In this document: in pieces, positions 51,120 through 52,664 of the stretch
Layout: each line of letters begins with the position of its first letter
How positions within the stretch are numbered: the stretch's first letter is position 1
Translations under genes and position numbers: made by a program
Notes under the pieces: generated by a model
Told to the model about the DNA's origin: nothing
The model's input: only the letters and a program-made list of their open reading frames with translations
Database searches by the model: none
Source: an uncultured Verrucomicrobiae bacterium
GTDB taxonomy: Bacteria; Verrucomicrobiota; Verrucomicrobiia; Limisphaerales; UBA11358
DNA: 64,000 bases
Assembly (NCBI GenBank): GCA_963802965.1
Contig: CAWDKS010000008.1
Coordinates: 160,375 to 224,374, forward strand
Direction of reading: 5' to 3'

Positions 51120-52664
51120 ATGGACGACACGAATGCATTGATTGAACAGCGCAAGGCCAAGCTCGCCGCGTTGCGCGCGAAGGGCATTGACCCGTTCAAA
51201 AACAAGTTCACGCCCGGCGAAACCTGCCAGCAGGCGCGCGACCACTATGTCGAGGGCCGCGAAGTCGCGCTCGCCGGACGCATCACCGCCCACCGCGACA
51301 TGGGCAAATCCATGTTCATGGACATCCGCGACCAGAGCGGGCGCATCCAGATTTACGCGCAGAAAAACGTCCTCGGCGACGAGCCATTCGCCATTTTTCA
51401 ACATCTCGACCTCGCGGATTTCATCGGCGTGCGCGGCACGATGTTCACCACCAAGACCAGCGAGATTTCCGTCAAAATCACGAGCTTCGTCATCCTCGCC
51501 AAGGCGCTGCGCCCGCCGCCGGCCAAATGGCACGGACTCGAAGACACGGAAATCCGCTACCGCCAGCGCTACCTCGATTTGATGGCGAACCCGGAGGTGA
51601 AGGACGTTTTCCTCAAACGCAGTCAGGTCATCGTTGAAATCCGGAATTTTCTGCATTCGCGCGGTTTTGTGGAGGTGGAGACGCCGATGATGCAGGCGAT
51701 TCCCGGCGGCGCGGCGGCGCAACCGTTCAAGACGCATCACAACGCGCTCGGCTGCGATTTTTACATGCGCATCGCGCTGGAACTGCCCTTGAAGCGGATG
51801 CTGGTCGGCGGCGTGGACAAGGTGTTCGAGATCGGTCGCGTCTTCCGCAACGAAGGCCTCTCGCGCAAACACAATCCCGAATTCACGATGCTCGAGGCGT
51901 ATCAGGCATTCGGCGATTACGAGAGCATGATGGAACTGGTGCAGGCGATGATTTGTTCCGTTGCGGAAAAGGTGCTTGGCACATTGGTCATTGAGCATCG
52001 TCCATTGGGTGTTGGGCGTTCGATGTTGGATGTTGGATGTTCCCAAAATGAAAAAGAAAAAACATCCAACGCTGAACATCCAACATCCAACATCCAAAGC
52101 GCGGAAGGCAAAGTAACCAAGATGATTGACCTCACGCCGCCGTGGCGCCGGGCAAAATACAAAGACCTCGTCCGCGAAAAGGCCGGTGCGGATTGGTTTG
52201 AAGTTTCTCCCGCCGAACGTCGCCAGCGCGCGCATGACCTTGGCGCGGAAATCGCCAAGGATTATCAGGATTTTGAAGTCACCGGCGCGGTGTTCGAGAA
52301 ACTGATCGAGCCGACACTGATTCAGCCAACATTCGTCACGCATCTGCCAAAGGAACTCGTGCCGCTCGCCAAACTTTCGCCCGACGACCCGACGACCGTC
52401 GAGGTTTTCGAGTGCTGCATCAACGGCCAGGAAATCGCGCCGGCCTACACCGAGCAGAACGATCCCATCGAGCAGCGCGAACGGCTGGAGCACCAGGCCG
52501 GCGGTGAGCAACAGAAGCTGGACGAGGATTTTCTGGTCGCGCTCGAACACGGCATGCCGCCCGCCGGCGGTATGGGCATGGGCATTGATCGGTTATGCAT
52601 GATGCTGCTCGGCCAGGAAAGCATCCGTGATGTGATTTTGTTTCCGCAATTGAAACCAAAATAA
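51120..52664 (+). CDS. lysS: Lysine-tRNA ligase (class II) carrying a repeat-derived in-frame insert
   Basis: OB-fold N-domain, then class II motifs (FRNEGLSRKHNPEFTMLE, GMGIDRLCMML). About 36 extra codons at roughly 52000-52105. Confidence 0.95.
   Translation: MDDTNALIEQRKAKLAALRAKGIDPFKNKFTPGETCQQARDHYVEGREVALAGRITAHRDMGKSMFMDIRDQSGRIQIYAQKNVLGDEPFAIFQHLDLADFIGVRGTMFTTKTSEISVKITSFVILAKALRPPPAKWHGLEDTEIRYRQRYLDLMANPEVKDVFLKRSQVIVEIRNFLHSRGFVEVETPMMQAIPGGAAAQPFKTHHNALGCDFYMRIALELPLKRMLVGGVDKVFEIGRVFRNEGLSRKHNPEFTMLEAYQAFGDYESMMELVQAMICSVAEKVLGTLVIEHRPLGVGRSMLDVGCSQNEKEKTSNAEHPTSNIQSAEGKVTKMIDLTPPWRRAKYKDLVREKAGADWFEVSPAERRQRAHDLGAEIAKDYQDFEVTGAVFEKLIEPTLIQPTFVTHLPKELVPLAKLSPDDPTTVEVFECCINGQEIAPAYTEQNDPIEQRERLEHQAGGEQQKLDEDFLVALEHGMPPAGGMGMGIDRLCMMLLGQESIRDVILFPQLKPK
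52007..52095. repeat. Family A palindromic element inside lysS
   Basis: Five heptamers gggtgtt-gggcgtt-cgatgtt-ggatgtt-ggatgtt (52007-52041), a 19-nt A-rich loop, then five inverted heptamers aacatcc-aacgctg-aacatcc-aacatcc-aacatcc (52061-52095). Confidence 0.9.

Follow-up and report, generated by a model that had tools for sequence, protein, structure and literature searches.

A heptamer palindrome carried in frame by a lysyl-tRNA synthetase gene of an uncultured Verrucomicrobiae bacterium

The lysS locus and its insert

The window analyzed here is a stretch of 64,000 nucleotides on contig CAWDKS010000008.1 (positions 160,375 to 224,374), assigned to an uncultured Verrucomicrobiae bacterium. 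On its plus strand, at 51120-52664, it harbors lysS, an open reading frame (ORF) for a class II lysyl-tRNA synthetase (LysRS) of 514 aa, which carries a palindromic array of heptamers in frame. Pfam recognizes two domains in the product, tRNA_anti-codon (PF01336) and tRNA-synt_2 (PF00152), and nothing extra; motif 2 (FRNE) and motif 3 (GMGMGIDR) are both intact, and the top match in the PDB is the Geobacillus enzyme 3a74 (HMMER, E 1e-141). The protein thus combines an OB-fold anticodon-binding domain and a class II core with full-length likeness to a solved LysRS, as expected of class IIb. In synthetases of this class, the region between motifs 2 and 3 houses idiosyncratic modules. Judging by codon substitutions, lysS is intact and under strong purifying selection. 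The flanks of the insert show a dN/dS of 0.06 against the closest ortholog with an empty site (L001), which bears out an earlier reading made from the sequence alone (the sequence-only reading), namely that a hairpin-forming repeat is read in frame within an intact gene. Values of 0.09-0.14 are obtained against other insert-bearing orthologs (dS 0.3-0.8) and of 0.04-0.14 against orthologs overall. A second lysS does not occur within the 64-kb window. The few homologues that have a source name, labelled as metagenome-assembled genomes of Limisphaerales or Verrucomicrobiota, place the host in Limisphaerales/Verrucomicrobiota.

Protein and codon alignments against L001/P0004 and 91 other empty orthologs delimit the inserted segment to 51999-52100 on the plus strand (codons R294-S327, RPLGVGRSMLDVGCSQNEKEKTSNAEHPTSNIQS). 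It takes the place of two codons, K-D or K-E (the empty site reads KD or KE), at a net gain of 96 nt, i.e. 32 aa; in the comparison of the filled site of the window with the empty site, AAG-GAA (K-E) is replaced, and no duplicated flank indicative of a target-site duplication is seen. The imperfect palindrome within this segment, in frame in lysS, extends over 52005-52100 and has the anatomy and coordinates that the sequence-only reading gave it, with 5+5 heptamers of the GATGTTG/CAACATC type around a 19-nt A-rich loop. The left arm (52005-52041, plus strand) consists of five SRATGTT-type heptamers, two degenerate and then three good ones (TTGGGTG TTGGGCG TTCGATG TTGGATG TTGGATG TT). The loop (52042-52060, plus strand, CCCAAAATGAAAAAGAAAA), defined by sequence and folding, codes for part of SQNEKEK. 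The right arm (52061-52097, plus strand) is built from five AACATYS-type heptamers, of which unit 2 (AACGCTG) is irregular, an irregularity also present in several orthologs. Each arm is 37 nt long; they are 78% complementary to each other, rising to 93% across 27 nt when the register is shifted, and represent direct heptamer arrays that start with CATTGG and end with CCAA(T/A). The GC content of the insert is 44% vs 58% for the gene. The heptamer pattern matches 13 times in the window, where 1.5 matches are expected by chance, and these matches are confined to 52022-52094 and 13857-13959, except for one match with two mismatches at 32270. The sense RNA of the element is predicted to fold at -47.7 kcal/mol (z = -5.2).

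The HMMER match to 3a74 comes in two pieces (query 4-293 to residues 5-303 and query 335-513 to residues 307-492), leaving about 40 query residues opposite a 3-residue turn of the solved enzyme; the proposed mapping onto a structure, done by alignment, therefore puts the insert at this turn. A low-confidence AlphaFold model (pLDDT 46, shallow alignment), from which secondary structure alone was used, shows a coil between strands 290-293 and 334-337, in agreement with the alignment, to which it adds slight support. From the conservation of the frame and of stop-free codons we infer that the insert is translated as a 34-residue loop, located where the LysRS catalytic domain makes a tight turn between motifs 2 and 3. 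The peptide runs from RPLG to NIQS and includes SMLDVGCSQNEK and TSNAEHPTSNIQSAEGK. Homologous in-frame inserts are present in about 20 independent assemblies, and all of these about 20 alleles are open. A unitig from a separate public soil run matches 51909-52041, i.e. the junction of the host gene and the left arm, with zero differences.

Occupancy, descent, and conservation of the insert

Among the 120 closest LysRS homologues (83-95% identical), which serve as the ortholog set, 92 have an empty site with the uniform sequence EH-KD-AEGK(V). Palindrome-type inserts of 28-33 aa are found in 11, including the window (example RSFDVQSSTLDVRCSPGQKTSNAEHRTSNIE), whereas 14 others hold mutually unrelated inserts of 85-117 aa and three hold short inserts. 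Since most close relatives (92/120) are devoid of the segment, it represents an insertion and not an ancestral loop, the alternative that the sequence-only reading had put up for checking by ortholog alignment. The empty site is the majority state and, judged from this set, likely the ancestral one. The site appears permissive, as had been proposed, with other inserts occupying it in other orthologs.

The inserts of 85-117 aa lie at the codon that corresponds to window position 51999 (P0007, P0051, P0058, P0060, P0074, P0075, P0082, P0086, P0087, P0097, P0098, P0109, P0112, P0113). At the DNA level, lysS genes with such long inserts were located at L129 3001-4743, L130 1868-3676, and L131 3001-4767. 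The long inserts have sharp boundaries and a GC content of 44-47% vs 57% for the gene, and they cannot be aligned with one another even where the flanks are 91-95% identical (L130 vs L131); one was modelled as all-helical at low confidence (pLDDT 56). Taken together, they look like a hypervariable cassette. The idea that they are in-frame PF05635 genes found no support, with neither Pfam matches nor BLAST similarity. The sole Y1_Tnp gene seen adjoins a lysS with a long insert and not one with the palindrome. Further lineage-specific LysRS inserts in frame follow window residue 122 (P0056, P0017, P0088) and residue 161 (P0010, P0055); that of P0056 reads TLEVGSSRCDDRTAQRAVPTTESAREDARPTNSP and resembles a translated repeat of another family. 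The study that provided the best-matching public run also contains a relative whose lysS site is empty (X2 record 21).

The DNA of eight insert-bearing orthologs and of 12 metagenome contigs, some being the same contigs, was compared. The contigs had been found by a pattern spanning the junction, and all 12 turned out to be lysS. Homologous inserts are shared by several diverged lineages of the Limisphaerales type, in each case at the same codon. They have in common the left junction, the reading frame, the 5+5 architecture, and irregular units, i.e. CGTTCG in left unit 3 and, in most copies, AACGCTG in right unit 2, which argues for descent from one insertion. Because the same codon and the same irregular arms recur in several diverged lineages, the insert is best explained, from these comparisons, as old and not as a recent transposition in the genome of the window; in this respect the sequence-only reading, which spoke of a mobile repeat, is not supported. 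Independent gain by each lineage from its own repeat pool was also considered and is disfavored by the common irregular units and junction, and by the finding that about 150 kb around lysS in relatives contain no other copies of the heptamer class. A donor copy of the exact element outside lysS was found neither by the junction-pattern search of contigs nor by the exhaustive HMMER search with the insert peptide. Around lysS, neither the window nor any of the insert-bearing loci contains a gene for a nuclease, a transposase, or a Y1 transposase.

The distribution of the insert does not follow the host gene. In a tree of the flanks, insert-bearing lineages are scattered, and their nearest neighbors are mostly empty orthologs. 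Subtypes were defined by the loop, whose sequence and length vary by subtype, and by the 3' junction. Between hosts with flanks that are only 84-88% identical, subtype-3 inserts have 88-97% identity; conversely, the flanks of L142 are 92-93% identical to those of L125 and L140, with inserts only 64-65% identical. Subtypes are thus, by these identities, incongruent with host-gene relationships. Directly upstream of the insert, a tract of 48 nt (51951-51998, plus strand), recognized by a switch in identity, was apparently co-transferred: it is 60% identical to L001 vs 94-95% for the remaining upstream gene (binomial p 1e-11), and 79-81% identical to the insert-bearing L002 and L126. In addition, valine at position -3 (L-V-[IV]-E-H) occurs in 11/11 insert-bearing vs 4/92 empty orthologs (p 7e-12). 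Both patterns indicate that short flanking tracts travel with the insert.

Conservation within the arms differs from that of the host gene. Invariant columns at codon positions 1/2/3 amount to 50/58/60% in the arms vs 75/83/26% in flanking lysS, with p = 0.0007 for the difference at third positions; positions 1 and 2 taken together are invariant in 54% vs 79%. The ATGTT/AACAT cores are kept without codon periodicity, and variation is limited to the two SR positions of each heptamer. Arm pairing is retained in 93.8% of pair cells, and five pairs show double changes (GC<->CG or GC<->AU). The covariation score of 0.198 (0.143 in shuffles) was reached by 0/500 shuffles; covariation of the SR positions between the arms is suggestive only. 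The missing codon periodicity, the invariant cores, and the covariation of the arms point to conservation of a nucleic-acid element and not of a peptide.

The sequence-only reading had also suggested a strong mRNA structure in mid-gene. A strong stem is indeed predicted in every ortholog folded, but signs of its selection are lacking: in 7/8 orthologs the antisense strand has the better predicted fold of the two, so a function of the sense mRNA is not favored by the predicted energies, and a selected sense-mRNA hairpin was rejected on this comparison. At the lysS element, a scan for terminators and promoters detected no such features, and Rfam 15 yields no family at gathering score, with sub-threshold matches to generic hairpins (miRNA precursors) only.

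Readability appears to be built into the repeat unit. An array of heptamers passes through all three reading frames. The GG variant is free of stops in six frames, reading (DVGCWML)n and (TSNIQHP)n, as is the CG variant, reading (DVRCSMF)n and (TSNIEHR)n; insertions with a length that is a multiple of three therefore have a good chance of being readable. GA and CA variants contain TGA on one strand. In lysS alleles, GA units occur only where TGA falls out of frame, a placement consistent with selection for read-through.

The wider heptamer class and other palindromes

A second heptamer-class element, recognized by pattern and sequence, is situated at 13856-13959 with the order (AACATYS)n, a GC-rich loop of 36 nt, and (SRATGTT)n. 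It is intergenic, between a histidine-kinase gene (ending at 13964) and a gene for an OEP/TolC-like lipoprotein, both on the minus strand. The likely start of the lipoprotein, MFLASVLVFAGC, is the ATG at 13857-13859 inside the terminal heptamer of the arm. The whole element is stop-free in the lipoprotein frame, so a gene caller would extend this ORF to 13963. Two arm orders can be distinguished, type A (ATGTT-loop-AACAT, as in lysS) and type B (AACAT-loop-ATGTT, as at 13856-13959), which are not interconvertible by a change of strand; the loops of the two window elements are unrelated. The sequence-only reading had assigned both to one family. The heptamer unit is the same, but owing to the inverse arm order the intergenic element is a member of the same class and not a copy of the lysS element.

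A scan for the class, with one genome per species and at least 120 loci listed, found heptamer arrays or palindromes, among the matches listed, in Verrucomicrobiota, Planctomycetota, Acidobacteriota, Desulfobacterota-type lineages, Lentisphaerae, some Bacteroidota, and others. The palindromes are intergenic in many phyla, and lysS is not among the 120 loci listed. Contigs from soil, peat, and permafrost that join 52097 back to 52003 via 17-31 nt show type B to be abundant. When runs X1-X20 were searched with 51700-52400, the arms recruited very high contig depth in metagenomes from soil, peat, and permafrost and in one metatranscriptome; in run X3 the depth is about 11,000 over 52012-52035, compared with values mostly between a few hundred and about 2,000 in the adjoining lysS bins. 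The class is hence abundant in these habitats.

In three loci, a PF05635 ORF (E 1e-11 to 1e-14) lies between or beside heptamer arms: L053 6072-6524 (Verrucomicrobiota), L013 427-985 (Desulfatibia), and L119 1230-1845 (Bacteroidota). This family, named '23S rRNA intervening sequence protein', has the fold of a four-helix bundle. In L053 and L013, the ORF begins with an ATG within the GAATG that closes the AACAT arm or a few bases past it, and both arm orders occur together with such an ORF. Three of the 120 listed loci clearly exceeds what a rough estimate would predict by chance (p about 8e-4). The loci examined show no rRNA signature, and the window contains no PF05635 gene.

That such elements can enter coding DNA, as the sequence-only reading proposed, is supported by single arms that are read in frame in other housekeeping genes. 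AACATYS arms occur in Pfam-supported genes for RecG (L093 3474-3506), Tgt (L107 1835-1853), a MiaB-like protein (L102 3508-3540), RsmB/F (L082 3854-3879), SMC (L081 2847-2865), TilS (L055 2670-2688), and AnmK (L118 5175-5193), and there are two further in-gene arrays beyond these seven; the hosts span several phyla. All nine are read in the hydrophilic NIQHPTS / NIEHRTS sense and never as MLDVGCW (p 0.004). The exhaustive HMMER search with the 36-aa insert gave 13 matches, none of them another conserved protein with the full two-arm palindrome; the eight that were read are mostly long tandem heptamer arrays in doubtful ORFs. A search with the 41-aa insert peptide gave no candidate. The two-arm form in frame accordingly looks rare, while the single-arm form recurs in other genes. 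A text search of the literature retrieved no paper with these heptamer strings.

Palindromes of other families are also present. The ABC-F gene adjoining lysS (52668-54776) contains, in frame, the GC-rich palindrome GGAGCGCCGGGCACCG at 53729-53794, which belongs to a family different from that of the lysS element (23-nt arms, 87% complementary; fold -49.3 kcal/mol, z -4.4). The loop concerned sits after LKHVKFGY, just before Walker A of the second ABC domain, and in orthologs it harbors three different in-frame palindromes (L001 5564-5656, L003 10269-10352, L127 2644-2772; z -4.2 to -7.1). To judge from these alleles, it is a second hotspot for translated repeats, and since the gene next to lysS also holds in-frame palindromes, such repeats seem to characterize this clade in general. 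Another copy of the GGAGCGCCGGGCACCG family (21679-21752; 22-nt arms, 86% complementary, 30-nt spacer) is located at the edge of the overlapping ORF candidates 21648-22898 (minus strand) and 21738-22889 (plus strand). An intergenic palindrome at 11290-11425 (48-nt arms, 73% complementary, 40-nt spacer) has AATGAC/GTCATT units and a GC-rich center, an architecture analogous to that of type-B heptamer elements with a different unit. A third family (GTTGGAGTTCA.GCTTCAGC.. / inverse; 24-25-nt arms, 83-92% complementary, 6-8-nt loop) is represented at 27552-27605 and at 50996-51053, the latter copy in the intergenic region between the DUF2142 gene and lysS, just upstream of lysS.

Origin of the insert and comparison with known systems

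The best explanation, which we hold with somewhat better than even confidence, is that a palindrome of a non-coding type became fixed in frame in a turn of LysRS through one insertion and then spread by recombination. One original insertion of an SRATGTT/AACATYS palindrome into the lysS turn would have been followed by spread among lineages via homologous recombination, replacing lysS alleles in whole or in part. The peptide would be a tolerated by-product, and the identity of the palindrome might be kept by arm-to-arm templated correction or gene conversion, or by a factor recognizing heptamer arrays. By analogy with the Rickettsia elements discussed below, the insert may then be regarded as selfish or neutral DNA in a permissive surface loop of an essential enzyme. 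Several points weigh against this explanation. Translation is deduced from conservation of the frame and of open codons, and the structural claim of a permissive site from the sequence alignment to 3a74 together with the low-confidence model (pLDDT 46). The covariation derives from eight related sequences, whose relatedness can inflate the score, and recombination tracts were checked in about 13 sequences by simple identity counts. The single origin deduced from the common architecture could be simulated by a site-specific element whose master copy is fixed. Constraint at the nucleotide level is unlike that of a purely neutral passenger and would be compatible with a function, for instance as an array of binding sites or as a DNA/RNA structure, and the sparsity of heptamer-class copies near lysS in relatives makes frequent gene conversion from other copies doubtful.

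Some of these observations would fit repeated, site-specific insertion resembling homing, in which the exact lysS codon is the target of an active element, or of a nuclease or recombinase acting in trans; empty alleles of many lineages would have been filled independently or by gene conversion, with co-conversion of short flanks as in the homing of introns and inteins. The polyphyletic distribution with empty nearest neighbors, the identical insertion point of all copies, the co-transferred short flank, and the other foreign-looking cassettes that repeatedly occupy this site are compatible with such a process, and heptamer cores conserved as nucleotides are expected if a protein must still recognize them. 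We nevertheless consider it unlikely: neither a nuclease or transposase gene near lysS, nor a target-site duplication, nor a donor of the exact element outside lysS came to light, and ordinary homologous recombination among related lineages in soil accounts for the same pattern with no need for dedicated machinery. The retained pairing with compensatory double changes, the third codon positions conserved far above the flanks, the retention across lineages at dS 0.5-0.8, and the strong predicted stem in every ortholog could instead reflect a functional cis-element, i.e. a hairpin or factor-bound heptamer array that tunes lysS expression with the peptide being incidental. It might act via RNase III cleavage, for which the long stems of related intervening sequence (IVS) elements are substrates (PMC4990558), via ribosome pausing before the insertion domain that follows motif 2, or via antisense or replication-linked effects. 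This function, by whichever route, is improbable to a similar degree, given that 92/120 close relatives manage without the insert, that the sense strand folds less well than the antisense strand in 7/8 orthologs, that terminator or promoter features and an Rfam match are missing, and that unrelated sequences occupy the same site in other orthologs.

Far less credible is an adaptive peptide loop of LysRS, providing for instance a new interaction surface, with the DNA symmetry as a relic of its origin. Long-term retention always in frame speaks for it, as does the position, marked by the breaks in the 3a74 alignment, at a site where class IIb synthetases carry idiosyncratic modules. The conservation pattern, however, is the opposite of that left by selection at the protein level, with positions 1 and 2 less and third positions more conserved than in the flanks; the heptamer itself determines the peptide, the predicted structure is a disordered coil in a low-confidence model, and the distribution is patchy. 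An artefact, be it a chimera assembled at a repeat or an ancestral loop specific to the lineage and merely resembling a repeat, is effectively refuted. Metagenome assemblies can collapse at repeats, and the arms attract many unrelated contigs, but a separate unitig reads through the junction without a difference, the in-frame structure recurs in about 20 independent assemblies made from different samples, relatives with an empty site form the majority, and heptamer palindromes are intergenic in many phyla. A broader conjecture, which we regard as doubtful, would make the heptamer palindromes a widespread and still-recognized hairpin class related to PF05635-encoding 23S IVSs and colonizing hairpin turns of essential genes in addition to intergenic DNA. 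The lysS copy would then propagate itself from species to species through biased gene conversion, a kind of homing that needs no resident nuclease, with a trans-acting factor that reads ATGTT keeping its sequence, and the long lysS cassettes and the ABC-F palindromes would reflect the same targeting.

Under the favored explanation of a single insertion spread by recombination, the case adds to what is known of translated repeats in that the insert is conserved as nucleic acid and not as peptide, that it moves between lineages with short flanks, and that particular turns (in LysRS and in the adjoining ABC-F protein) are recurrent landing or tolerance sites. This raises the questions of what maintains palindromes within genes, whether four-helix-bundle proteins of the IVS type bind heptamer arrays, and which share of the proteome variation in Verrucomicrobiota, Planctomycetota, and Acidobacteriota stems from translated repeats. 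In practical terms, inserts of this sort make proteins look more divergent than they are and can lead gene callers and phylogenies astray.

Among known systems, IVSs of 23S rRNA resemble the class in their long inverted-repeat stem around a loop and in the PF05635 ORF next to heptamer arms in three class loci. In Coxiella burnetii, tandem heptameric repeats are located directly upstream of the S23p ORF of the 23S IVS, and the long terminal stem is cut by RNase III (PMC4990558). At the level of the class, a stem and heptameric direct repeats next to an ORF start are likewise present (L053, L013, L119). The lysS copy differs in that its loop of 19 nt holds no ORF and that it resides in a protein-coding gene instead of helix 25 or 45 of 23S rRNA; the Coxiella heptamer (GACAGAT) is unlike that of the lysS class, and excision by RNase III would destroy the lysS mRNA. 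Repetitive extragenic palindromic (REP) elements and their doublets (REPINs), mobilized by RAYT (Y1) transposases (PMC3116915, PMC3733652), share inverted doublets of about 100 nt with a long hairpin, many copies, the lack of a target-site duplication, and occurrence in many phyla including Verrucomicrobia. REPs, however, are small palindromes with a GTAG or CGTC head, whereas the lysS arms are headless direct heptamer arrays, and REPINs are almost exclusively extragenic. A tblastn search for RAYT/Y1_Tnp found no match in the 64-kb window or in the other loci. The lack of a target-site duplication also sets the insert apart from MITEs, in which terminal inverted repeats are flanked by such a duplication. 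Cyanobacterial short tandemly repeated repetitive (STRR) sequences and other bacterial heptamer arrays (cf. PMC4692102) consist of dispersed seven-base units in many copies. They share with the lysS class a seven-base unit that passes through all three reading frames and its dispersal in many copies, but are direct arrays and not hairpin-forming pairs of arms; to our knowledge, no essential enzyme has been reported to carry them as an in-frame insert. Inteins and group I introns also occupy one exact site in an essential gene, with a scattered phylogeny and co-transferred short flanks. The lysS insert lacks splicing motifs and an endonuclease and is kept in the mature reading frame; with 34 aa (inteins have at least 130 aa), R at its start in place of Cys or Ser, and S-A at its end in place of His-Asn plus a nucleophile, it is not an intein.

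The closest parallel is provided by the Rickettsia palindromic elements (RPEs; Ogata et al., 2000; summarized in PMC10969869), which are inserted in frame in many genes. The likeness extends to palindromes of about 100-150 bp, located between genes and in frame in unrelated housekeeping genes, translated as an extra peptide apparently compatible with fold and function, and not associated with a transposase. By its sequence, the lysS insert appears to be of this kind: a palindromic repeat that also occurs outside genes and is read in frame and free of stops within a conserved functional gene. Its heptamer arms and Verrucomicrobiota host set it apart from the Rickettsia families RPE-1 to RPE-10 proper. 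Whereas RPEs reside in an obligate intracellular alphaproteobacterium, the host here is a free-living soil verrucomicrobium; the arms are tandem heptamers and not a unique RPE consensus, and the lysS copy is an old allele exchanged among lineages, for which conservation at the nucleotide level is documented here. In-frame palindromic 'selfish DNA', so far treated as a curiosity of Rickettsia, is thereby met in free-living soil bacteria, in an essential synthetase, and in the form of heptamer arrays. The lysS insert thus represents the phenomenon known from Rickettsia palindromic elements in a different host, with a different repeat anatomy and a different evolutionary history.

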